64,000 bases of DNA, taken from NCBI GenBank assembly GCA_035702425.1, contig DASSQQ010000087.1, forward strand, positions 12,143-76,142. Direction: 5' to 3'. Below the pieces are notes generated by a model. That model saw nothing but the letters and a program-made list of their open reading frames with translations, was not told where the DNA came from and ran no database searches. The DNA is from Gemmatimonadales bacterium (GTDB lineage: Bacteria; Gemmatimonadota; Gemmatimonadetes; Gemmatimonadales; GWC2-71-9). The position numbers and the translations under genes are program-made. Shown piece after piece: positions 1 to 60,575 of the stretch. How positions within the stretch are numbered: position 1 is the stretch's first letter; each line of letters begins with the position of its first letter.

Positions 1-45
1 CTGGCGCTCTCGCCTTGACTGGAAGGCGGAGCGTCCGCCGACCCG

Positions 46-1059
46 CTAGCCCTCGTGCCCCTCCCGCCACATCTCGGCCAGCGCGCGCACCGTGCCCGGC
101 GCGTTTCCCTCGGCCCGGTTGTTCGCCAAAATGAACGCTTCGAGCCGCCGCCGCTGCGCTTCCGCGATCAGCCGCAACAAGTCTCCCCGCAACTCCGGGT
201 TCGGCTCCTGCACCCGGTCGTAGGGCCGGAAGCGCTCCACCGCGTCCGCGTAGCGCCGCCCCGGCCGTAACAGCACCCGCGCCACCGTGAACGGCGCCGG
301 AAACACGAACGAGAGCTGCAGCTGCTGGCCGATGGTCGGCATCTCGGTCCAGGAGTTGAACACGTGCGCCACCTGGTGGCGCTTCAGCACCTCCCCGTGG
401 AGGGGATGCAAGAGCTCCGCGTTCCGGAGCTCGACCCCGTACCGGAACTCGGCCGGCAGCTCGGTGAAGAAGCGATCCAGCTCCTCCGCCCACTCGCCGG
501 GGCCGGGGAGGTCGCGCCCCCGCATCGCCTGAAACTCGAACACGAAACAGCCGGCGTGATCGCGGAAGACGCGGGAGTACGGGAGCAGCACCGCGTCCTT
601 GAAGAGCTGCGCGTTCAGGAAATCGGGATTCCTCGTCCCCGCGTCCTTCCCCCACTTCGGATCCTTGTTGAAGCGCCGAGCGGTGATCCGGTCCCAGACC
701 TTGCTCACGCAGGGGAAGCCGGGCGGGAGCGCTTTCGCGTACGCGGCGAGCGTTTCTTCCGACGGCGGATCGTAGAAGGCGCTGTCGATCCCCACGGTGC
801 GGAAGAGCGGATAGCGCGCGTATTCCTCCAGCCGTTTCGCAGGTTGAGGACCGCGGTAGGGCCGGTGATAGACGTCCCCCGCCCAGCCGTCGTAGGTCCA
901 GGTGGAAGTGCCGAAACGGATCGCGGGCGGGAGCGAGCCGGCGAGCGCGACCAGGTCGGGGCGCGGAGGCGGGAGCGCCTCGGGGGCGTCGAAGAGAGAG
1001 GGTTGCTCGCGCCGCGGCATTCTGGCTTTGACTATGCCCATCAAGGCCCGATCCGTCAA
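46..1059 (-). CDS. DUF72 (UPF0759) family protein
   Basis: 337-aa track ORF. The FGTSTWTYDGWAGDVY-type N-terminal motif and the length are typical of DUF72. Codons are GC3-rich. The overlapping + strand ORFs are Arg/Pro-rich shadows. Confidence 0.8.
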   Translation of the reverse strand: MTDRALMGIVKARMPRREQPSLFDAPEALPPPRPDLVALAGSLPPAIRFGTSTWTYDGWAGDVYHRPYRGPQPAKRLEEYARYPLFRTVGIDSAFYDPPSEETLAAYAKALPPGFPCVSKVWDRITARRFNKDPKWGKDAGTRNPDFLNAQLFKDAVLLPYSRVFRDHAGCFVFEFQAMRGRDLPGPGEWAEELDRFFTELPAEFRYGVELRNAELLHPLHGEVLKRHQVAHVFNSWTEMPTIGQQLQLSFVFPAPFTVARVLLRPGRRYADAVERFRPYDRVQEPNPELRGDLLRLIAEAQRRRLEAFILANNRAEGNAPGTVRALAEMWREGHEG

Positions 1060-1138
1060 AAGGTTAGGCGGATGATCCAGGCATCTTGCGGCCTTTTGTG
1101 GCTTCGGGATATATTCGGGCCCCCGAGGAAATCTGTCA

Positions 1139-2431
1139 ATGCCTCAAGCGTCCCGGCGTCCCCCGACCAGCACCCTCGCCGCGTGCTGCTGGATTCCGCT
1201 CTTCGCCCTGCGCTGCGAAGAAGCGCGGCGGCCGGAGCTCGCGGGACTGCCGCTCGCGATCCTCTCCCCCGACGACGCGCGGCGGGTCTGGCAGGTCTCG
1301 CCCCTCGCCCGCCGCTCCGGGGTGCGCGCCGGTCTCACCGTGAGCCAGGCGATCGGTCTCTGCCCCGCGCTCACCCTGATCGAACCCGATCCGGTCCATT
1401 ACGACGAGCGCTTTTCCGCCCTCCTCGCGCGGCTCTCCAACGTCAGCCCCGTGGTCGAGCCTCAGGAGCTGGGGCGGGCGTTCGTGGGGAGCGACGGGAT
1501 GGAAGGGATTTACGGCGGGCCGGAGCGGTTCGTCGAAGCCGTCAAACGCGGAATGCGGAACGCGGAACGCGGAACAGAAACGGAAAGCCCGATCGCATGT
1601 TCCGCGTTCCCACTTCCCCGTTCCGCGTTTCGGATAGGTTGGGGCGCTGGCAAGTTCACCGCCTGGGTCGCCGCCACGCGCGCCAAACCCGGCGCGGCGG
1701 TGATCGTCCCGCCCGGTGACGAAGCGCGATTCCTCGCGGGCCAGCCGATCGCCGTCCTCCCGCTCGACCCCGACACTCACCGCCGGCTCCGCCGCCTGGG
1801 CGTGAACACCCTGGGCAAGCTCGCGGCGCTCCCCGAAGAAGCCGTGGTCTCGCAGTTCGGAAAACCGGGGCGCCGGATCTGGCGGCTCGCGGCGGGCCGG
1901 GCGGTCGAGCCCGTGGTGGGACGGGTGCTCCCGGAGCCGATCGTGGTGTCGCTCGCGTTCTTCACGCCGGTCGCGGGAGAAGAGCTCCTGCTCGCGTCCC
2001 TGCGCCAGCTCCTCGCCCGCGCCCTCGCCTCCCCGCGGCGCATCGGATGGCGGGTGCAAACGGCGCGGGCTCGGGCCGAGCTGGAACAGGGAACCTCCTG
2101 GCTCGCCGAGGTGACCCTCAAGGATCCCACCGCGGACCGGGAGCGGATTCTGGCGCCGCTCCGGGTACGGCTGTCGCAATCGCCGCCCGCGGGCGCGGTG
2201 GAGCGGCTCACGGTGGAGTTCACCGCCTTCGCGCCCGGGACCACCGAGCTGCAGCTCTTCGCGCGGGACGCCACCGCCGCCGCGCGCGCGGGCCGCCGCC
2301 GCGCCCTCCGCGCCGCCACCGAAGAGATCCGCCTGAAGCTGCGGCGCACTTTTCTCTATCACGTGATCGAAGTCCAGCCCTGGTCCCGCCTGCCGGAGCG
2401 GCGTTACGCGCTGATCGATTATGAGCCATAA
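1139..2431 (+). CDS. imuB: ImuB-like inactive Y-family DNA polymerase (mutasome subunit)
   Basis: 430-aa ORF with Y-family polymerase-like layout. The N-terminus reads ..AACCWIPLFALRCEE.. where DinB has its catalytic acidic residues, which is an ImuB hallmark. It lies directly upstream of dnaE2. A C-terminal ELQLF resembles a clamp-binding motif. It carries an in-frame heptamer hairpin at 1545-1629. Confidence 0.75.
   Translation: MPQASRRPPTSTLAACCWIPLFALRCEEARRPELAGLPLAILSPDDARRVWQVSPLARRSGVRAGLTVSQAIGLCPALTLIEPDPVHYDERFSALLARLSNVSPVVEPQELGRAFVGSDGMEGIYGGPERFVEAVKRGMRNAERGTETESPIACSAFPLPRSAFRIGWGAGKFTAWVAATRAKPGAAVIVPPGDEARFLAGQPIAVLPLDPDTHRRLRRLGVNTLGKLAALPEEAVVSQFGKPGRRIWRLAAGRAVEPVVGRVLPEPIVVSLAFFTPVAGEELLLASLRQLLARALASPRRIGWRVQTARARAELEQGTSWLAEVTLKDPTADRERILAPLRVRLSQSPPAGAVERLTVEFTAFAPGTTELQLFARDATAAARAGRRRALRAATEEIRLKLRRTFLYHVIEVQPWSRLPERRYALIDYEP
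1545..1629 (+). repeat. Heptamer-built palindromic element, copy in imuB (in frame)
   Basis: Sequence: aacgcggaa tgcggaa cgcggaa cgcggaa ca / gaaacggaaagcccgatcgcatg / ttccgcg ttcccac ttccccg ttccgcgtt. The outer 9 nt pair perfectly and the arms are about 32 nt. It is translated as ..NAERGTETESPIACSAFPLPRSAF.. Confidence 0.8.
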
Positions 2432-2438
2432 AACCAAA

Positions 2439-2467
2439 GGCGTGGTGCGTAATGCGTGGTGCGTTGG
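2439..2467 (+). repeat. Heptamer tract (half element) in the imuB/orf94 spacer
   Basis: Sequence ggcgtgg tgcgtaa tgcgtgg tgcgttgg covers the orf94 start codon at 2452. It uses the same unit as the left arm of the 2731-2816 element. Its first 9 nt (ggcgtggtg) are the exact reverse complement of 2800-2808. Confidence 0.6.
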
Positions 2468-2736
2468 CAATGTCTGACCGGCTCCGCGCGATCAACGTCC
2501 CGCAACGGGTGGAGGTCGAGGTGGACGCGGCCGGCAATCCGGTGACGGTGGCTCGGTCCGCCGGCCCGTCGGTCCGCCGGTCCGTCGAGGTGGTTCTTGA
2601 ATCCTGGCGGGTGGACGACGAGTGGTGGCGGCGTCCGCTCACGCGCACCTACTACGAGCTGCTGCTCGAAGGAGGACATCACGTCGTGCTGTATCGGGAT
2701 CTCAACACCCACGAGTGGTGGATGCAGAAACCATAA
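2452..2736 (+). CDS. Small conserved-looking hypothetical protein inside the imuB-dnaE2 cassette
   Basis: 94-aa GC3-rich ORF that exactly fills the gap between the imuB stop (2431) and the dnaE2 start (2811). The C-terminus is Trp-rich (ESWRVDDEWWRRPLTRTYYELLLEGGHHVVLYRDLNTHEWWMQ). An alternative ATG lies at 2470. Confidence 0.6.
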   Translation: MRGALAMSDRLRAINVPQRVEVEVDAAGNPVTVARSAGPSVRRSVEVVLESWRVDDEWWRRPLTRTYYELLLEGGHHVVLYRDLNTHEWWMQKP

Positions 2737-2816
2737 AAACACCATGCGTAGTGCGTGGTACGTGGTTGGTTCCGACATGACCGCGCGCTACGCACCACCC
2801 ACCACGCCTTATGGCC
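2731..2816 (+). repeat. Heptamer-built palindromic element filling the orf94/dnaE2 spacer
   Basis: The element runs from ccataa.. to ..ttatgg. The stem is gcgtggtacgtggt (2753-2766) paired with accacccaccacgc (2794-2807), giving 12 of 14 bp. The left end contains the orf94 TAA and the right end contains the dnaE2 ATG. Confidence 0.75.
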
Positions 2817-5800
2817 TACGCCGAGCTCCACTGTCACTCCGCCTTCTCGTTCCTGGATGGCGCGTCGCTCCCCGAGCAGCTGGTGCTCACGGCGCGGGAG
2901 CTGGGGTACGGCGCCCTCGCCCTCACCGACCGGAACGGGCTCTACGGCTCGATGGCCTTCGCGCACGCGGCGAAGCGGCTCGATCTCCAGCCCATCACCG
3001 GCACCGACGTCACGCTGACGGACGGCGCGCGCGTCACCCTGCTCGCCGAAACGCCGCCGGGCTACGCCAATCTCTGCCGGCTCCTCACCGAGACCCACCT
3101 GTCCCGCGCCGATCGCCGCGATCCCCGGCTCGACTTCGCCTCGCTCGAAGCGCGGCACGAGGGGCTGATCGTGCTCTCCGGCGGCCGGGACGGGCTCCTC
3201 CCCCGCGCCCTCGCGGCCAGCCGCTCCGGCGCCCGCCGGCTCGCCGAGCGCTGCCGCGCGGTGTTCGGGCGGCACGGATGTTACGTCGAGCTGCAGCGCA
3301 ACCGGGTCCGCGGCGACCTCACGCTCACCCGCGCGCTCGCGGATCTCGCCGATGCCGCGGGGCTCGACGTGGTGGCCACCGGCAACGTGCTCTACCACCG
3401 GCGGGAGCGGCACCGGCTGCACGACGTGCTGGTGGCGATCCGCCAGCGCACCACGCTCGACGGCTCCCACACCGTGCGCCAGCCCAACTCCGAGTTCGCC
3501 CTGCGCCCGCCGGAAGAAATGGCGGAGATCTTTTGCGACCGCCCCGATGCCGTCCGCCGCACCGACGAAATCGCGGCCCGCTGCCGCGCCTTCGACCTCA
3601 CCAAGGACCTGGGCTACGGATTCCCCGATTTCCACGGCGCGGCAAGCACGCCCGCCCCCCAGGCCCTGGCCGAGCTCTGCCGGGCGCGCTTCGAGGAGCG
3701 CTACCCGCCCGACTCGGTGCACCGCGTGGAAGCCGAGCGGCGCCTCGCCGAAGAGCTGCGGCTGATCGAGCATCACCGGCTCTCGGGATTTTTCCTGGTC
3801 TATCACGACCTCTTCGACCTCGCGCGCGAAGTGGCGGCCGACGTGCGGCGCGGCACCCGCCGCGCGATGGGAGGCCTCCTCCCCGGCCGGGGGCGCGGCT
3901 CCTCGGTCTCCTCCGTGGTGTGCTACCTGCTCGGCCTCTCCCACGTGGATCCCGTCGCCTGCCATCTCTTCATCGGCCGCTTCCTGAACGAAACCCTCGC
4001 GTCGGTCCCCGACATCGATCTCGATTTCCCCCGCGAGATCCGCGAGGAGCTGATCCGGCGGGTCTACAAACGTTACGGCGACGAGCACACCGGGCTGGTC
4101 TGCTCCTATCCCACTTACCGCCTGCGCTCCGCGGTGCGGGAGATCGGCAAGGCGCTCGACCTCCCGCCCGGAGAGCTGGAACAGGTCGCCCGGCTCGCGG
4201 ACCACCGCTCGGCGGGCGGCCTGCGCGAGGAATTGCAGGAGCTCCCGGGATTCCGGGACCGGGTGGACGCGCCGCTTTGGCGGGAGCTGGTGGAGCTGGC
4301 CGAGGAGATCGCGGGACTCCCGCGCCACATCTCCCAGCACGTGGGCGGGATGATCATCTCCAGCCGCCCCCTGGTGGAAATCGTGCCGCTCGAGCGCGCC
4401 GCGATGGAAGACCGGGTGCTCTGCCAGTGGGACAAGGATTCCTGCGACGACGCGCGCTTCATCAAGATCGATTTCCTGGCGCTGGGCATGCTCTCCCTGG
4501 TGGAGGAATGCGTGGAGCTCGTCGCCAGGAAAGAAGGCCAGCCGCCCGATCTCTCGCGCATCGACTTCGAGGACCCCGCGGTCTACGATCGCATTTGCGC
4601 CGGGGACACGGTGGGGCTCTTTCAGATCGAGAGCCGCGCCCAGATGCAGATGATCCGCCGCACCCGGCCGCGAAACCTCGAGGACCTCGCGGTGGAAGTG
4701 GCGATCGTGCGGCCGGGACCGATCGTGGGCGGCGCGGTGAATCCGTACGTGCGCCGGCGCGAAGCCCAGCGCGCGGCGCGCGCCAAGGGGCTCCCTTACG
4801 AACCGCCGCTCGATCATCCCCTGCTGAAAGAGGCGCTCACCGAGACCCTGGGCGTGATTCTCTATCAGGACCAGGTGCTGCAGGTCTGCCAGGCGCTCGC
4901 GGGATTCACGGCGGGCCAGGCGGAAGCCCTGCGGCGGGCGATGAGCCGCCGCCGCTCCCGGGAGCTGATGGGCGGATTCTGGGAGGAATTTCGCGCCGGC
5001 GCGATGGCGCGCGGGGTATCGGAGAAGACCGCCGAGCGGGTCTTCGCGCAGGTGATCGCGTTCTCGGAGTTCGGGTTTCCCAAGTCGCACGCGGCGGCGT
5101 TCGGGCTCCTCGCCTATCAGTCGGCGTGGCTCCGGCACTATCACCCGGTCGAGTACTACGTGGGACTCTTCAACAACCAGCCGATGGGATTTTACTCGCT
5201 CGATTTTCTGGGCCGGGACGCCAAGCGCAACCGGGTGGACATCCGGCTGCCCGACCTGAACGCGAGCGACGTGTGGTGCACGGTGGAGCAAGAGACGGGA
5301 GGCGAGAGACGAGAGGCGCACGCGTTGCGGATCGGGCTCGGGTTCATCAGGGACTGGAGCGAAGAAACCGCGACGGCGGCGGTGCTGGAGCGGGAGCGGA
5401 ACGGCCCCTACCGCAGCCTCGGCGACTTCGTGCGCAGAGCGCCGGCGGGATTGAATCGTACCGCGATCGAGAATCTGGCCTGGGTGGGCGGGTGCGACGG
5501 GTTCGGCCTCACCCGGCGGGAAGTCCTCTGGCAGATCGGGCTCTGGCTCCCGTCGGAAGCGGCGCGGAACGAGAAGAGAGTGCGGCGCCAGCTCGAGCTG
5601 CCGCTCGATCATCCGCACGAGCGACTCCGCTTCACCGGCGTGGGCGAGAGCGACCGTCTTCTCGCCGAGTACGCGATGCTCGGCTTCGCGGCGAGCGGGC
5701 ATCCGCTCTCACTGGTGCGGGAATCATTGCCCGGGCGCCTGGTGCTCTCCGACCGGCTCCCCGGTCTCGAGCACGGCGTCCGGGTGGAGGTGGCGGGCCT

Positions 5801-6152
5801 GGTGGTGGCGCGCCAGCGGCCGGAGACCGCCAAGGGAATCGTGTTCGTTCTGCTGGAAGACGAGCGGGGAATGGTGAACGTGATCGTCCGGCCCGACGTC
5901 TACGCCAAATGCCGCGTGGCGGTGCGCGGCGAGCCGTTCCTGCACGTGATCGGCAAGCTCGCGAAGGACGACGGGACGCTGAACGTGCTGGCGGAGGAAG
6001 TGCGGGGACTGCAGGTCAATTGTGGATTGCCGAATGCGGATTGTGGATTGGAAAGCCCGGCCGGCGAATCCGCGATCCGCAATCCGCAATCGCCAATGTC
6101 GTTGCTCCGCTCCCTGCGCCAGGTGGCGCCGGACAGCAAGGACTGGGGCTAG
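2811..6152 (+). CDS. dnaE2: Error-prone DNA polymerase DnaE2 (ImuC)
   Basis: 1113-aa ORF. N-terminal PHP domain ([17 protein letters not shown]), Pol III alpha core motifs, and a size and gene context typical of DnaE2. It carries an in-frame heptamer hairpin 18 codons before the stop. Confidence 0.95.
6019..6097 (+). repeat. Heptamer-built palindromic element, copy in dnaE2 (in frame)
   Basis: Sequence: attgtgg attgccg aatgcgg attgtgg attgg / aaagcccggccgg / cgaatcc gcgatcc gcaatcc gcaatcg ccaat. 26 of 33 arm positions are complementary. It shares the central GGAAAGCCCG with the imuB copy. Translated as [27 protein letters not shown]. Confidence 0.8.
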
Positions 6153-7048
6153 CCCCCCACCCGCTCCTCCCACTCCTCGAGCGAGCGGGGCCAGTCGTCC
6201 TTCAGCAAGCGCGACAGCGACCGGTCCGCCAGCACCTTCCCTCCGGTCTGGCAGGTGGCGCAGTAGTTCATCTCGTTCTCGGCGTAGCGCACCCGCTGTA
6301 CCGGCGAGCCGCAAACCGGGCAGGGCCGCTTGTACCTCCCGTGTACCGCCATCTCCTCCCGGAACGCGGTCACTTTGTCGGGGAACCCGTCCCCGGCTTC
6401 CGCCGAAAGCCGCGCGATCCAGCCGGTGAGCGTGGCCCGCGTCGCCGCGTGCAGGCGGTCGAGATCGGCATCGGACATCGTGCCGGTGAGCGCGAAGGGC
6501 GAGAGCTTCGCGGCGTGGAGAATCTCGTCCGAGTAGGCGTTGCCTACGCCGGAGAGAATGTGCGGATCGGTGAGCGCGCGCTTCAGGGTGTGGTTCTCGC
6601 GGCGCAGCGCGGCGCGGAATTCCGCGGCCGTCGCCTCCAGCACCTCGAGTCCGCCCGCCGAGAGCGCGCGCAGCGCCTCGTCCCCGCGCACCAGATGGAG
6701 AGATGCGCGCTTCTTGCCCGACGCTTCGGTGAAGAGCAGAGTTCCGGAGGCGAAATCGAACGCGGCGAGGCCGATTTTCCCGGGCACCTTGGTCTGGGGC
6801 GGCTTCCAGCGCAGCCGCCCCGCGATCATCAGATGAATGACGAGAAAGAGATCCGGCTCGAGCGCGATCACGATGCGCTTGCCGAGGCGGGAGACGCCGG
6901 TCACGGTGCGCCCCGGCGCCGCGTCGAGCGGCGGCTCCACGCTCCGCACCAGAAACGGACTCGTGACCCGGACCCGCTCCAGGGTTCGCCCCACGATTCG
7001 CGGGCGCAGCGCTTCGAGATAGACCACGATGTCGGGAAGCTCGGGCAC
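6149..7048 (-). CDS. Fpg/Nei family DNA glycosylase/AP lyase
   Basis: 299-aa ORF. N-terminal MPELPD (catalytic Pro2/Glu3), an H2TH-like segment ([13 protein letters not shown]) and a C-terminal zinc finger (CPVCG...CATCQ). It lies immediately downstream of lhr on the same strand. Confidence 0.9.
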
Positions 7049-7077
7049 GAAGGGTTACGGCCCGCCGGAGTGGACGG

Positions 7078-10000
7078 TCAGCGTCTTCCGAGGTAGGCGC
7101 GCACCATCGGCGCCGGGCGGCCGCGGACCAGAGCGGTGCGGAGCGCGGGAGCGTCGTCGGGAGAGACGTCCACCAGGAACGCTTCCCCTTTCCCGCCGCC
7201 CCCTTCCCCCAGTTTCACGGCGACCGGGATCCCGTCGCGATAGAGAATCCGGTTCGACGCGATCGCCGTCACCGGCTCCCCCGGCGTGATGATGCCGACC
7301 AGGTTGAGCGGGTCCGCCGCCGAGAGCACCACGATCTCGCCCAGTCCCCCATCCCCGATCCCGGCCTCTCGCCTCACCGACCGCAGCAGCCCCACCGCCT
7401 CGCTCAGCGCGTACTGCTCGCCCGAGAATCCGCCGACGAACCGCCCGCCCCGGATCTCGCCCCGCGCTTCGAGCCGGCGGAAGACGCGCAGCACGTCGCG
7501 CCACGGCGGCAGCACGCTCTCCCGCTCGACCAGGCGCCGGAACACCACGCCGTAGCGCCGGAGCAGCTGCCAGGCCACCGCCTCCGCCAGCTGATCCTCG
7601 GGGAGGAGCGACGACTTCCCGGCGAGCGACCAGCGCCCCGCGGTGTCCACGCCGAACGGCGCGACCTTCCCGCGCCGCCGCCGGAGATTCCCCACCGGGC
7701 GCCGGCGGTCGGAGGGCACGAGGAGCGCCCGGAGTCCGGAGAAGCTGTCCGAGGTGACCACGCCCCACGACACCAGCTCGCCCAGCCCTTTCTCCACTTC
7801 GGTGCGGAGGAGTCCGGTGGCGTTGACGAGGTCGCCGAAGAACGACGCGCCGCGTTCCCGGAGCGCCGCGAGCAGGGCGGCCGCTGAATGACTGAGAGAC
7901 AGCTGGTCGAGATCGGGTGGCGTGGCCAGTGCGCGCCATACGGCGCCTCGTTCCCGGCGGAACAGGGCGATCCGCGTCGACCTGATCGGTCCCGCCTTCC
8001 AGTTCCCCGTTCCTCGGTCGGCGGTCCGCGTTGTCTCCAGCTTCCCCCACGCGACTTCGCCGGAAAGACAGAGCCCATCGAGCCACAGCGGATCGTATTC
8101 CGCCATCCGCGCCGGGAGGACGTCGGTCTCCCACGCGGCGGCGGGAAGTTCGTAGCCGTCCAGCAGATCGAGCACCGCCGCGAGCCCCTCCGGCCCCTCG
8201 GCGCGGGTCGCGGGCGACACCCGCTGCCACCGGAACAGGAAGCGCATGAAGTCCGCCGCGGTGACGGGCTCGATTTCCTTGCGCAGGCGGTCCAGGGTGT
8301 AGCGGTGAATCCGGGCGAGCAGCCTCCGCTCGCACCACTCGACTCCCTCCCGCCCGGGCGTGAACCGGCCCCGCAGCACGAACCCCTCGTGCTCGAGCGC
8401 GCCCAGGCCGAAGGTCACGTCGCTCTCGGCAAGTCCGAGCGCGGCGGCGATCTCGGCCACCGTGGTGGGCCCGACGATCTCGAGCCGGCCCCGCACCAGC
8501 TCCCGGATCGCGTCCTCCCGGGTCCAGGTCTTGGCGCGTTCCCGCTCCGGCGCGAGGACGCCCGCCGGCTCCCAGGTCACGCCGGGATACGCCGCCTCCG
8601 CGAGCGGCAGCCGCTCCGCCGCGACCCAGAGCCCGGGCGCGACCTGCAACCGCGCGGCCCGTCCCGCGCCCACCAGTTCGGCGAACAGGGCGCCCCATTC
8701 CGCGCTCCGCGCCCCCCGTTCCGCGCTCCACGTTCCGCGTTCCGCGTTGGGTATCGCCCCCGCCACCATCAACGCGTCGTGCAGCTCGTCCGCGTTTTCG
8801 GGATCGGGCCACGCTTCCTCTTTCACCCGGAGGATCGCGTCCGTGTCGAGCTTCCCGAACTCCTCGGCGGTCTTCACGTCGAGCGAGCGCCGGGTCACCA
8901 CCGCCTGGGTCCGCCGCTCCTCGAGCGGCGCGTCGTCCAGGAAGGCGTAGGGCTTGGCGTTCAGCACTTCGTGCGCGAGCGGTGACGGCTCGGTCACGTC
9001 CCGCGCCGCGAGCCGCACTTCCCCCCGCTCCATCCGCTCCAGCACCTGCACCAGGCCCGCGAGATCCATCGCTTCGGTGAGGCAATCGTGGATGGTCTGC
9101 TGGACCAGCGGGTGATCGGGAATCTCGCGATCGCCCACCAGATTTTCGGGACAGGCGAGCTGGTCGGGGAAGACCGCCGCCGAGAGATCCTCGGCCTGCA
9201 TCCGCTGGAGCGGCGTGGGGACCTTTTTCCCGCCGAGGCTGCGCAGCACCGCGAGCGCGCGGGTCGCGTTCCAGCGCCAGCGGCTCTGGAACATCGGCGC
9301 GTCGAGCATCGCCTGCACCAGCAGATGCTCGGCGGTCTGCGGCTTCAGGTACTGGAACACGTCTTCCAGCGCGAACGAATGATGGGGCCCGAGCGAGATC
9401 ACGATCGCGTCGTCGGTCGCCGCGGCCTGCAGCTCGAAGTTGAAGGACCGGCAGAACCGCGTCCGCAGCGCCAGCCCCCACGCCTTGTTCACCCGGGCGC
9501 CGAAAGGCGCGTGCAGGACCAGTTGCATCCCGCCCGCCTCGTCGAAGAAGCGCTCGAGGACGATGGACTCCTGGGTGGGAATGAGGCCCAGCGTTTTCTT
9601 CGTCGCCCCGAGGTACTCGACCAGCTGCCGGCCCGCCGCTTCCTGCAGTCCGGTCTCGCTCTCCAGCCAGGCGATGGCGCCGCGCTGGTCGTCGAGCCGG
9701 GTGTCCAGATCGGCGCGGAGCCGGGAAACTTCTTCGGAGAGCTCGACGGTGCGCGCCGGCGCTTCGCCCAGCCAGAACGGGATGGTGGGCGGCTGGCCCT
9801 GCGCGTCCGCCACCCGCACCTGCCCCGATTCGACCTTGGTGATCAGGTACGACGCGTTGCCGAGCTGGAAGATGTCCCCGGCCGAGCTTTCGATGGCGAA
9901 ATCCTCGTTGAGGGTGCCGACGAAGGTCTCGGTGGGCTCGAGGATGACGCGGTAGTCGCCGATGTCGGGAATCGCGCCGCCGGAGGTGATCGCGGCGAGC

Positions 10001-24224: not shown

Positions 24225-25793
24225 GTGCTCCGACTAGGCCGCCGCCCCTGCCGGGCGCTCGCGATCGTCGCCGGGGGACTCGCCGCCGGCGTGAGTCCCC
24301 TCCTCGCGCAACGCGCGCATCAGCTCGAGGTCGGCGCCTTCGGCTCCTACAACAGCTTCGACGGCGCCTACCATCTCAAGGATCACATCGGCGAGGGCGC
24401 GCGGGTCGGATTTTTCCTGCTGGGCCACACCCTCGGCCTCGAGCTCGACGGCGGCTACGTGCACCCGGTCGCCGATTCCGGCACCGGCAGCGCCCAGGTC
24501 TACACCGGCAGCGCGAGCCTCGTCTTCAATTTCGTCGCCGGACATTCCAGCGTGTACGTCCTCGGCGGCTACACCCGGCTCAATTTCCGCGGCAACAGTC
24601 AATTCACCGACGCCGCGTTCCACGTCGGCTACGGCGACCGCATCCTTCTGGGCGACCGCCTCGCCCTGCGGCTCGAAGCCCGCAACATCTTCACGCCGAC
24701 CAGCAAGCTCCCGGTCTCGTCGCCCCCCAAGTGGGCGATGCACATCCAGGGCACCGCCGGCGTGTCGGTGCTGCTGTTCGGACACTTCGGGCCTCCCCCC
24801 GACGCCGACTCGGACGGCGTCGCGGACAAGCACGACGCCTGCCCCGCGACCCCGCGCGGCGCCACAGTCGATGAGCGCGGGTGCCCGCACGACGCGGACG
24901 GCGACGGCGTCTACGACGGAATCGACAAGTGCCCCAGCACGCCCGCGGGTGCCAAGGTGGACGTCGCCGGGTGTCCCACCGACGCCGACAAGGACGGCGT
25001 CTTCGACGGACTCGACCGCTGCCCCAACACGCCCCTCGGCGTGAAGGTGGACGTCGCCGGGTGCCCGGTGGACTCGGACAAGGACGGCGTGACCGACGAC
25101 CTCGACAAGTGTCCCAATACGCCGGTCGGCGCCAAGGTGGACGCCACCGGTTGCCCCATCGACACCGACAAGGACGGCGTGCCGGACGGGATCGATCAGT
25201 GCGTGGCGACGCCGTTCGGCGCCACCGTGGACGCGACCGGGTGCCCCCTCGATTCCGACAAGGACGGGGTCTACGACGGGCTCGACCAGTGTCCCAACAC
25301 GCCCGCGGGCACCCAGGTGGACCCGCGCGGCTGTCCCGCCAATCTCGACACCGACAAGGACGGGGTCCTGGACTCCGTCGACAAGTGCCCCAACACCCCG
25401 CCCGGCACCAGCGTGGACGCCACCGGCTGTCCGATTCTCTTCACCACCAAGCGCACCGCGCTGGTGCTGCGGGGAGTGAACTTCGAGGTGGGACGCTCCG
25501 CCCTGACCGCCGACTCGTACGGCGTGCTCGACGGCGTGGCCGCGTCGCTGGTCGCCAATCCGGAGATCCGGATCGAGATCGCGGGTTACACCGACAACAC
25601 CGGCTCGGCGGCGGTGAACACCCGGCTCTCCCAGGCGCGCGCGGCCGCGGTGCGGGCCTACCTCGCGGCCAAGGGCGTGAGCCCGGACCGCATGGTGGCG
25701 CGCGGTTACGGACCGACCCATCCGCTCGCGCCCAACACCACGGCGGCGGGGCGCGCCCGGAACCGCCGGGTCGAACTGCACCAGCTCCCGTAG
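24225..25793 (+). CDS. OmpA-family outer membrane protein with thrombospondin type-3 (Ca-binding) repeats
   Basis: 522-aa ORF with a signal peptide and an N-terminal beta-barrel-like part. It has about 8 repeats of DxDxDGVxDxxDxCPxTPxGxxVDxxGCP. The C-terminal OmpA domain reads IAGYTDNTGSAAVNTRLSQARA...NRRVEL. Confidence 0.85.
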   Translation: MLRLGRRPCRALAIVAGGLAAGVSPLLAQRAHQLEVGAFGSYNSFDGAYHLKDHIGEGARVGFFLLGHTLGLELDGGYVHPVADSGTGSAQVYTGSASLVFNFVAGHSSVYVLGGYTRLNFRGNSQFTDAAFHVGYGDRILLGDRLALRLEARNIFTPTSKLPVSSPPKWAMHIQGTAGVSVLLFGHFGPPPDADSDGVADKHDACPATPRGATVDERGCPHDADGDGVYDGIDKCPSTPAGAKVDVAGCPTDADKDGVFDGLDRCPNTPLGVKVDVAGCPVDSDKDGVTDDLDKCPNTPVGAKVDATGCPIDTDKDGVPDGIDQCVATPFGATVDATGCPLDSDKDGVYDGLDQCPNTPAGTQVDPRGCPANLDTDKDGVLDSVDKCPNTPPGTSVDATGCPILFTTKRTALVLRGVNFEVGRSALTADSYGVLDGVAASLVANPEIRIEIAGYTDNTGSAAVNTRLSQARAAAVRAYLAAKGVSPDRMVARGYGPTHPLAPNTTAAGRARNRRVELHQLP

Positions 25794-59075: not shown

Positions 59076-60575
59076 CTAGGGCCGGGTCGGCGGTCGAGGC
59101 GCGCGCAGGTGCACCCGCGCCGCGCGGCGCGGCCCTCCGCCGTCTTCCTGGGGCGCGTTCAGCACCGCGTCTTCCGCCCGCAGGTCGTCGATCTGCGACA
59201 GCGCCCACACCGCGGCGCGGCGCACCTCGCCTGACGGGTCGCCCATCGCGTCCTTCAGCGCGTCGATGGCCTTCACGCTCTGGATCTCTCCCAGCGCCCA
59301 CGCCGCCGCCACCTGCACGTCCCGGGCCGTGTCCTTGAGCGCCGGCGTGATCCACGGCACCGAGTTCACGTCCTGGATCTCGCCCAGCGACCAGGCCGCC
59401 GTCTCGCGCACCCCGGGGTCGGGATCCTTGAGCGCGGCGCCCAGCGCGGGCACCGCCGTGGCGCTCTGGATTTCACCGAGCGCCCAGGCGGCGCTGCGAC
59501 GCACGTCCGCCGCCGGGTCCTTCAGCGCCGCGCCGAGGGAAGTCACCGCGCCGGCCGCCTGGATCTCGCCCAGCGCGTGCGCCGCGAGCGACCGGGTCTC
59601 CGCGTCCGCATCCTTCAGCGCCGGCGTGAGCGCCGACACGCTGGACTGGAGCTGCAGCTGGCCCAGCGCCCATACCGCGTTGGCGCGCACCTCGGGAGCG
59701 GGATCGGAGACGGCCCGCTGGAGCGCTCCCGCGGCCCGCCCGTCGCCCAGCTGTCCCGCGCCCCAGGCGGCCATGGCGCGAACGTCGCTGTCGGCGTCCG
59801 CCAGCGCGGTCCCGATGGCGGGCTCGGCGGTCGAGTCCGACAGTTCGGCGAGCGCCCACACCGCCACCCGCCGCACTCCGGCCGACTGATCCTTTGCCAC
59901 CACTTTCAACGGATCGAGCGCGGCGGGATCCGCGAGATCTCCCAGTCCCAGCGCCGCCTCGCGCCGCACCGCGGCATCCTGGTCCTTCAGCGCGCCGATG
60001 AGCAGGGTGAGCGCGTGCGGGTCCCCCTGCTCGGCGAGACCGAGCGCTCCCGTCGCGCGGATCCCGGCGTCCGGGTCCCGCAGCATTCCCGCGAACAGGT
60101 TGAACGTCGCCTTCGAGCCGTCCTCGGCGAGCGCCCGCGCGGCGATGCGCCGCACGCAGGCGCTCGGCGCGCGCACGAAGCCCGCGTAGGCCGCGAGAAG
60201 CGACGGATCGTTGCGGTCGCTCCGGTCCCAGCGCCACCGGATCCGCGGCATCCGCATCCGCTCGAAGGACGCGCGCATCATCGGCATCGGCATCGGGGTC
60301 GGCATCGGGACCGGCCGCGGCGTCGGCAGGTGGTCGGGGCTGATGCGATAGTTGCCCCAGTTGTTCAGCGCCGCGCCGGCGAGCTCGCAGACCTCGGAGT
60401 CCACGGCGCCGAGCTGGGTGAGGAGCCGCGCCACCGCGGCCGAGTCGAGCCGCGCGTCGCCATCGCGGCGGATCCCGGAGGACTGGGACGCGAGACCCTG
60501 GGCCGCGGGCGAGCAGACGATGACGGCGGCGAGCGTGGCGGCGGCGCTGAGCGCGAAGCGGGGTGCGAGCGGCAT
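59076..60575 (-). CDS. Exported HEAT-repeat (PBS-lyase-type) protein
   Basis: 499-aa ORF with a signal peptide and about 10 tandem ~31-aa units of the form DxxVRxxAAWALGEIQ...AVxxLxxALKD. Confidence 0.75.
   Translation of the reverse strand: MPLAPRFALSAAATLAAVIVCSPAAQGLASQSSGIRRDGDARLDSAAVARLLTQLGAVDSEVCELAGAALNNWGNYRISPDHLPTPRPVPMPTPMPMPMMRASFERMRMPRIRWRWDRSDRNDPSLLAAYAGFVRAPSACVRRIAARALAEDGSKATFNLFAGMLRDPDAGIRATGALGLAEQGDPHALTLLIGALKDQDAAVRREAALGLGDLADPAALDPLKVVAKDQSAGVRRVAVWALAELSDSTAEPAIGTALADADSDVRAMAAWGAGQLGDGRAAGALQRAVSDPAPEVRANAVWALGQLQLQSSVSALTPALKDADAETRSLAAHALGEIQAAGAVTSLGAALKDPAADVRRSAAWALGEIQSATAVPALGAALKDPDPGVRETAAWSLGEIQDVNSVPWITPALKDTARDVQVAAAWALGEIQSVKAIDALKDAMGDPSGEVRRAAVWALSQIDDLRAEDAVLNAPQEDGGGPRRAARVHLRAPRPPTRP

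Follow-up and report, generated by a model that had tools for sequence, protein, structure and literature searches.

Long-range RNA pairing couples the translation of cistrons in the "Min Jou" interaction of MS2 coat and replicase and in rpmI-rplT of the Escherichia coli IF3-L35-L20 operon. In both systems, an upstream sequence pairs with a downstream start that is unable to initiate independently, and upstream translation opens the pairing. Here we describe a predicted pairing of this kind in a 64,000-nucleotide (nt) stretch of DNA from a soil Gemmatimonadales bacterium (assembly GCA_035702425.1, contig DASSQQ010000087.1, positions 12,143 to 76,142; hereafter the window). It joins the two spacers of an operon at the start of the window, on the plus strand, which consists of an imuB-like gene, a small open reading frame (ORF) called orf94, and dnaE2. 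As in MS2 and L35-L20, mechanistically the nearest of the known systems, a start is predicted to be sequestered by upstream pairing (2781-2810 with 2437-2467). In contrast to those systems, both strands are here tandem heptamer arrays, the helix, here predicted from sequence, encloses a whole gene and would mask the start of that gene too, and the array sequence changes wholesale between lineages.

The locus also recalls several families of repeats. REP, BIME, and REPIN sequences, Correia elements, and Rickettsia palindromic elements are small hairpin repeats, those of Rickettsia lying in frame within genes. Like them, the sequences described below form hairpin modules at several sites, insert in frame in variable protein regions, and are exchanged between copies; unlike them, they have tandem-heptamer arms and no high-copy family in the window, and one copy is split around a gene. 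In the 5' untranslated region of Haemophilus influenzae hmw1A, a transcribed heptamer array likewise forms an arm of a long mRNA hairpin by the start site and affects expression there (PMC12721329); among RNA elements built of repeats, this leader is the nearest parallel. The partner arm in that case is a non-repeat G-rich sequence and the copy number varies, whereas at the present locus arrays make up both arms and keep to about four units. Among the TAACTGA repeats of Beggiatoaceae and cyanobacteria, cyanobacterial STRR sequences, and long simple sequence repeats (SSRs) (PMC4679880), heptamers similarly stop within a few nucleotides of start codons without a Shine-Dalgarno (SD) motif. One heptamer is used genome-wide there, in direct repeats for which protein binding was proposed, whereas the operon studied here concentrates many heptamer types, always in complementary pairs. 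Its gene order and content, with a small, all-beta middle product, agree with operons of a Y-family polymerase (PolY), a standalone ImuB C-terminal module (ImuB-C), and DnaE2 without ImuA (Timinskas and Venclovas 2019, PMC6511836), a study of the proteins, not of the spacers. None of these systems matches the locus fully, in that both strands are arrays, a whole gene is bracketed, the repeat type turns over with pairing kept, and the copies are concentrated in one operon. Literature searches returned no description of such arrays in Gemmatimonadota or in imuB-dnaE2 operons. The genes and arrays concerned are the following.

1139-2431, plus strand: imuB-like Y-family polymerase gene, 430 amino acids (aa), Pfam IMS (E 9e-16), C-terminus ...YEP
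2437-2467, plus strand: A1, the array of spacer 1 (GCGTGGT GCGTAAT GCGTGGT GCGTTGG), period 7 by Tandem Repeats Finder (TRF); contains ATG 2452; 5' strand of the predicted long-range helix
2452-2736, plus strand: orf94, 94 codons from ATG 2452, stop codon TAA at 2734-2736
2745-2769, plus strand: A2, the 5' part of spacer 2, a heptamer array in the same sense as A1; 5' arm of a local hairpin
2780-2810, plus strand: A3, the 3' part of spacer 2, a complementary ACCACGC-type array; ends at the base preceding the dnaE2 ATG and covers the expected SD position
2811-6152, plus strand: dnaE2, 1,113 aa, ATG at 2811-2813; Pfam PHP, DNA_pol3_alpha, finger, HHH_6, and OB domains

A first-pass annotation of the letters had described both spacers as heptamer tracts, spacer 1 carrying the same-sense tract, and the arrays bore this out. 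Spacer 2 (2737-2810, 74 nt) is made up of A2, a short loop, and A3. The annotation had further bounded it by CCATAA (2731-2736) and TTATGG (2809-2814); the coordinates are right, and the two motifs were rejected as element termini, since CCATAA is the proline codon and stop of two conserved C-termini (YEP-stop and QKP-stop) and closes imuB (2426-2431) as well as orf94.

A1 and A3 form an inverted repeat (2437-2463 with 2784-2810, 27 nt, 81%), and in the minimum-free-energy fold of 2400-2830, A1 lies on A3 (2437-2467 with 2781-2810) and orf94 is looped out. By partition function, A3 is paired with A1 at a probability (P) of about 0.97 and with A2 at about 0.03; P for A1:A3 was 0.89 across three choices of the 3' boundary. 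The A1:A3 duplex has an energy of -48.8 kcal/mol (z -5.3), and none of 300 shuffled partners did as well. Its core is the pair of 9-mers, ggcgtggtg (2439-2447) and caccacgcc (2800-2808), that had been singled out earlier as exact reverse complements, within a helix of 27 to 31 nt. An additional short pairing reaches the dnaE2 AUG with a probability of about 55%. When arrays were folded as bimolecular duplexes, A1:A3 reached -53.5 kcal/mol versus -35.3 kcal/mol for A2:A3. The hairpin that spacer 2 forms when folded on its own has an energy of -37.5 kcal/mol (z -2.96), a value matched by 2 of 200 shuffles. The stem proposed for it in the first-pass annotation, 2753-2766 with 2794-2807 at 12 of 14 pairs, does pair, whereas the lowest-energy register is 2745-2766 with 2780-2801; several registers are possible because the heptamer period permits slippage.

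A scan for promoters and terminators gave no sites in the spacers and no terminator-like site in 2400-2830. An intrinsic terminator or attenuator was rejected, as no U-run follows the GC-rich stem and A3 is followed by CTTATGGCC. An Rfam scan of positions 1-10000 returned no match at the gathering score; the sole match was a plant microRNA model on a hairpin within imuB (25 bits versus a gathering score of 73).

We compared the spacer architecture across eight lineages represented by about 27 contigs, for which L-numbers serve as labels: the window with L001-6 and L037; L028; L012-15; L041-43; L044/46/47/49; L051/53/54; L060/61; and L072. In each lineage, spacer 1 is an array of about four heptamer units and its complement abuts the dnaE2 start, the C-rich array ending 0-12 nt from that start in all eight. 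The heptamers are of five types.

GCGTGGT: window and L028
ATTGCGG: L012, L044, and L047
AACGCGG: L043
GGAGTGY/GGAATGY: L051
AATGCGG/AGTGCGG: L060/61

Despite this turnover, the two spacers of a lineage match each other. Duplexes between a lineage's own spacers ranged from -47 to -64 kcal/mol (z -5 to -12) in seven of the eight lineages, whereas cross-lineage pairs averaged -30 kcal/mol except where the heptamer was common to both; in 20,000 permutations, no assignment was as good as the own pairs. The predicted helix had P values of 0.80-0.94 in eight of nine lineages when the 3' boundary was set at the start codon.

For a covariation test, the spacers were aligned with MAFFT from sequence alone, the 30-bp helix was specified, and pairs were counted against 500 shuffles. 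Paired cells made up 83.7% of the helix against 73.6% for the shuffles, none of which reached that level; 12 of the 30 pairs were altered on both sides (1 of 500), and the covariation score was 0.327 versus 0.170 (0 of 500). Slid registers were just 27-46% paired, and the signal held although the window and L028 were two columns out of register. Closely related contigs told the same story at finer scale. L060 and L061 are 99.6% identical over 2,038 nt and differ by eight single-nucleotide polymorphisms (SNPs), three of them in the spacers; two of these three are base-paired partners about 370 nt apart that change C:G to U:A. In L047, an A-to-G change relative to L044 turns A-U into G.U. Covariation, as expected of a pairing of the MS2 and L35-L20 type, is thus found at this locus; an identical signal would be expected if arms were copied at the DNA level.

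Long-range pairing that loops out orf94, which the first-pass annotation had offered as an alternative to a local hairpin, is therefore the dominant predicted fold and is kept with covariation in seven of the eight spacer lineages; the structure prediction of 2400-2830 and comparison with relatives that it had proposed as a check returned the A1:A3 fold and covarying pairs. A1 and A3 are truly complementary, and some process maintains the match between them through repeat turnover.

The local hairpin fared less well. Its proposed role was that a ribosome ending at the orf94 stop melts A2:A3 and reinitiates at dnaE2, and the hairpin itself does fold, as do self-contained spacer-2 hairpins in L064, L072, and L081. 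Set against this are its weakness relative to A1:A3 (about -35 versus -53 kcal/mol) and a predicted occupancy of about 0.03 in the window. L012, L044, and L051 have a degenerate equivalent of A2, and L028 and L043 have none; the latter two allow long-range pairing only, because their spacer 2 lacks a local 5' arm. In seven of eight comparisons, the distal partner was better kept than the local one. Melting by a terminating ribosome would be limited as well: A2 begins at 2745, 9 nt past the stop, and the standard footprint of a ribosome halted at 2734-2736 would hardly extend that far. We regard the local hairpin as very unlikely to be the functional unit.

The reading that we favor is that the two spacers are two strands of one structured element in the imuB-orf94-dnaE2 mRNA. 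The A1:A3 helix of about 30 bp would loop out the whole orf94 cistron and bury the start regions of both orf94 and dnaE2, with A2 as a weaker local alternative partner for A3. A ribosome coming from imuB, or one that translates orf94 across A1, would have to open A1:A3 before initiation at orf94 or dnaE2; since the helix must be broken first, the output of orf94 and DnaE2 would be tied to imuB translation. ImuB, its split-off C-terminal module, and DnaE2 might in this way be held at a fixed ratio and at low levels. We put the probability that an mRNA helix masks these SD-less starts and ties their translation to upstream translation at roughly 0.45. What the sequences show is the complementarity with its conservation and covariation, the predicted thermodynamic dominance of the helix, the lack of SD motifs, and the ancestral overlap; that the helix forms as RNA in vivo and governs translation is inferred.

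The earlier report that no SD-like motif precedes dnaE2 was correct, and inspection of the orf94 start found no such motif there either. Other genes carry SD motifs, including GAGGAA before imuB. The arrays therefore lie over two SD-less starts in an organism that uses SD motifs elsewhere, which supports selection for an mRNA helix.

Overlapping or abutting cistrons are the classic geometry of translational coupling, and this is how the genes are arranged in most relatives, which have no spacers of this kind. In the usual relative, the ORF starts about 50 nt inside the 3' end of imuB in another frame, so that the same nucleotides encode ...RRYALIDFEP-stop of ImuB and MVAPPRTPLRADRLRALN of the ORF. 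From the ORF stop to the dnaE2 ATG there are most often 4-45 nt (4 nt in L007), with longer unrelated insertions at this point in a few lineages. In the window group, the dual-coding segment is present twice (2410-2431 and 2471-2497), once ending imuB (...LIDYEP-stop) and once starting the ORF (M-x-x-DRLRAIN), and the heptamer array, as read by eye, is located between the two copies. Since the segment is present twice with the array between its copies, the imuB/ORF overlap appears to have been resolved by a short duplication. The arrays thus sit exactly where the ancestral coupling overlap was lost, which again supports selection for an mRNA helix; the helix would take the place of the overlapping or abutting junctions by which most relatives couple these cistrons. 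Translational coupling and control of stoichiometry are plausible on this model, because the genes of most relatives overlap or abut and because orf94 and dnaE2 are without SD motifs.

The operon carries further copies of the repeats in places where masking of a start is irrelevant, and the neighboring lhr gene holds a tract of the same family.

1544-1630, plus strand: heptamer hairpin in the imuB coding sequence, arms (AAYGCGG)x4 at 1544-1576 and (CCGCGTT)x4 at 1598-1630; the loop contains GGAAAGCCCG
6017-6097, plus strand: heptamer hairpin in the dnaE2 coding sequence, arms (ATTGYGG)x4 and (CCGCAAT)x4, loop GGAAAGCCCGGCC; in frame, in a hypervariable C-terminal linker
8664-8748, minus strand: heptamer tract in the lhr helicase coding sequence, AACGCGG-type, single-sense, 7.3 copies (TRF), with no partner arm

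The imuB hairpin is the longest inverted repeat of the window (33 nt, 85%). It is in frame and adds about 29 residues to what protein alignments show to be a hypervariable ImuB linker; among relatives it is kept as a hairpin, with compensatory changes in 7 of 22 pairs. Relatives carry hairpins at the same places in imuB and dnaE2 with other heptamers, and in L028 the types of the two hairpins are swapped relative to the window. The sequence GGAAAGCCCG occurs in both coding hairpins of the window (at 1583 and 6051), GAAAGCYCGGCC is common to the window dnaE2 hairpin and the spacer-2 hairpin of L012, and the loop GAAAGCCCGGCC of the former matches the loop of the latter. A looser loop motif, GRAAGCYCG, has 10 matches in the window versus 5.4 expected, of which the two hairpin loops alone are meaningful. 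Entire ImuB hairpins, arms and loop, have been replaced between strains that are 97-98% identical (ATTGCGG in L051 versus AGTGCGG in L053), and a second such swap separates L041 (AACGCGG) from L042 (ATTGCGG).

The first-pass annotation had not seen these hairpins; their behavior as exchangeable modules opens a nonregulatory explanation. Palindromic SSR modules, each of heptamer arms and a loop, would colonize places that tolerate insertions, among them very short spacers and linkers within proteins, and be homogenized by gene conversion or template switching, the A1/A3 match being a by-product without a regulatory role. Modules of the same type are found in the ImuB linker, spacer 2, the DnaE2 linker, and lhr, and copies at the first three sites are related through common loops and arms and through the swapping of whole modules. 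The G-rich arm is 5' on the sense strand in all 21 helices examined, as expected of direct copies; because direct copying accounts for this polarity, we did not use it as evidence of function. The same spacer holds unrelated palindromes or repeats in L023, L059/62, L064, and L081. The paired SNPs of L060 and L061, arising at 0.4% divergence, would be more easily produced in a single templated event than through two mutations, each selected. Some bacteria also have heptamer SSRs in abundance (Mrazek 2007, as cited in PMC4679880).

Several observations fit poorly with this alternative. Conversion by proximity should favor a match of A3 with A2 over A1, and the opposite was found in seven of the eight comparisons. 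Although spacer 1 is just a half-module, its heptamer changes in step with that of spacer 2 across the five types. The arrays are steady at four units without copy-number polymorphism. Strong period-7 tracts are confined to 1.5-8.8 kb, in the operon and once in lhr; the other 55 kb of the window is free of strong heptamer tracts and of the longest hairpins. The better-kept distal arm, the retained half-module, and the fixed length also support selection for an mRNA helix. We rank module spread with homogenization as the main rival explanation of the A1/A3 match, less likely than the start-masking helix but with real weight.

Weaker heptamer tracts were seen at 7182-7210 and 7340-7362. Dispersal of the REP/REPIN type or like that of miniature inverted-repeat transposable elements was rejected for the window, where the tracts are limited to 1.5-8.8 kb and no transposase or RAYT gene was seen near the arrays. 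A peptide search with (NAERGTR)x6 for in-frame arrays returned just spurious small ORFs in unrelated low-GC organisms and was uninformative on Gemmatimonadales. Unrelated low-GC metagenome organisms (L115, 2980-3400; L114, 4070-4230; L118, 4085-4160) have intergenic heptamer SSR arrays of great length, in which tracts of several different heptamers follow one another; the one in L118 adjoins Y1-transposase-like genes, and we draw no link to the arrays described here.

Several points weigh against the start-masking helix. Modules are swapped whole and have loops in common, so DNA-level copying could match the arms without selection on RNA; it would explain the coding copies, the common loops, the cassette swaps, and a SNP pair that is improbably quick for selection. 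Hairpins within coding regions have no start site to mask. L072 has lost the match between its spacers and has a strong self-contained spacer-2 hairpin instead. The spacer arrays were not found in the close relatives L007 and L048, and L007 has the linker hairpins despite this. A comparison of G.U pairs in sense and antisense gave mixed results for the spacer helix. In L044, L047, and L051, the helix loses to a competing fold once the dnaE2 coding flank is included; this fold pairs 5' codons of the ORF with dnaE2 codons 3-10 and would be pseudoknotted with A1:A3.

In the window, orf94 5' codons at 2506-2526 (GGTGGAGGTCGAG) are complementary to dnaE2 codons 4-10 at 2820-2842 (GAGCTCCACTGTCACTCC). 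In L044 and L047, this complementarity is far stronger and is in competition with A1:A3; the two together would make a pseudoknot. Conservation of protein motifs may have produced it incidentally.

A further explanation covers spacers and coding hairpins alike. Stalks that flank rRNAs for processing and Correia elements are known RNase III substrates of a similar kind. Were the duplexes described here such substrates, cutting the A1:A3 stalk of about 30 bp would release orf94 and leave imuB and dnaE2 on separate mRNAs, and cuts within coding sequences would keep mutasome mRNA low. The duplexes, at 28-35 bp and near-perfect, have the size of typical RNase III sites. In eight of nine coding hairpins, the sense strand folds more stably than the antisense strand, with 36 versus 17 G.U pairs; this asymmetry is suggestive of sense RNA and was not used as proof. 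The hmw1 leader of H. influenzae, in which a heptamer SSR forms a hairpin cleaved by RNase III, is a precedent (PMC12721329). The position of the arrays at start codons is less well explained by cleavage, and cleavage is compatible with masking of the starts, not exclusive of it. As an account of its own, it appears unlikely.

We give a still smaller chance to an elaboration of the start-masking helix, by which it would act as a ribosome-routing device. The imuB stop lies 6 nt from the helix base and the dnaE2 start lies at the base, so that terminating ribosomes might either melt their way into orf94 or transfer to dnaE2. Sliding and cassette-replaced arrays would then tune the ratio of ImuB, ImuB-C, and DnaE2, and with the coding hairpins they would make up a mutasome-specific posttranscriptional brake built of self-renewing repeat modules.

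The inverted arrays of 27-31 nt flank a segment of 320 nt that carries orf94, which would suit an invertible segment; alternatively, heptamer slippage might switch imuB or dnaE2 as contingency loci, as a 7-nt change in copy number within a coding sequence would shift the frame. All assembled contigs of the clade have one orientation, and no recombinase gene is found among the neighbors. The alignment of the window with six population contigs (99.6-99.9% identity) has no gaps, with the proviso that consensus assemblies could hide minor variants, and the arrays have about four units in every lineage. We consider switching at the DNA level very unlikely, and a phase-variable SSR contingency locus was rejected on the invariant copy number in these seven near-identical contigs.

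Two starts are open to orf94, ATG 2452 within A1 and ATG 2471, 4 nt past A1. The latter (88 aa) is likely the true one, judging from the N-terminus M-x-x-D-R-L-R of its homologues. The product is a small protein with a WRVDDEWW motif, for which AlphaFold 2 predicts an all-beta fold of six strands (mean confidence score, pLDDT, 88.7). Few close relatives were found by word search; a profile search returned 1,446 cluster representatives, the best 150 of which are all standalone proteins of 66-197 aa. Scans of a genome collection and a metagenome collection gave 15 and 77 loci, respectively, with the ORF. At every locus with flanks, it sits between an imuB-like gene and dnaE2, and orthologues of the imuB-like gene lie upstream of it in all loci examined. 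The named genomes that have it belong nearly all to Gemmatimonadota (Gemmatimonadales and Longimicrobiales), with one Dehalococcoidia.

Orf94 itself had no match in Pfam or NCBIfam and no significant match to the PDB by Foldseek or by sequence search, and the imuB product gave Pol IV-type matches in NCBIfam that fall below the curated cutoffs. Nine of 63 members of the orf94 family weakly match PF20114 (DUF6504), which we take to be equivalent to ImuB-C. The genomic context and these matches suggest that orf94 is probably a standalone ImuB-C module. A variable loop of the protein coincides with a short tandem repeat, and relatives hold (GAAACGG)3-4 at this position, about 187 nt upstream of the ORF stop.

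2553-2587, plus strand: tandem repeat in orf94, 8/16-nt units, TCGGTCCGCCGGYCCG x2.2 (TRF), in the variable loop
1085-1119, plus strand: promoter/operator candidate of the operon, a TTGCGG-like -35 box and the direct repeat CTTCGGGATATATTCGGG (1102-1119)

The 18-mer CTTCGGGATATATTCGGG is a direct repeat of the form TTCGGG-N5-TTCGGG that overlaps a TATATT -10-like box, the TTGCGG-like -35 box lying 17-18 nt upstream. It precedes imuB unchanged in 16 lineages, among which identity of the ImuB proteins is just 33-68%. We infer that 1085-1119 is probably the promoter and SOS-type operator of the operon.

In L001, a 150-kb contig of the same organism from one metagenome sample, dnaE2 (6360-9701) was called as two genes of 223 and 877 aa. 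Since the alignment of this contig with the window has no gaps, dnaE2 is probably interrupted by a nonsense substitution in that population. Elsewhere in the window, coding tandem repeats are present at 24878-25426 (90/180-nt units with Asp/Gly/Cys/Pro-rich codons, thrombospondin-type-3-like by eye) and at 59272-59576 (93-nt units, in a gene on the other strand).

Error-prone DnaE2 mutasomes drive damage-induced mutagenesis, and their control is known mainly as transcriptional, through LexA. Covariation in helices built of repeats can come from DNA copying as well as from selection on RNA, a caution that applies whichever reading of this locus is right. Should the arrays be selfish DNA, they would represent previously undescribed palindromic modules with heptamer arms that reside in coding linkers, turn over as cassettes in near-identical strains, and are able to resolve overlapping genes. 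Should they be regulatory, they would be a rare case of SSRs that build a covarying long-range RNA helix. From the operons described in PMC6511836, one would expect ImuB and its separated C-terminal module to be required in matching amounts. A regulatory helix would add a posttranscriptional layer that fixes subunit ratios after the split of ImuB from its C-terminal module.

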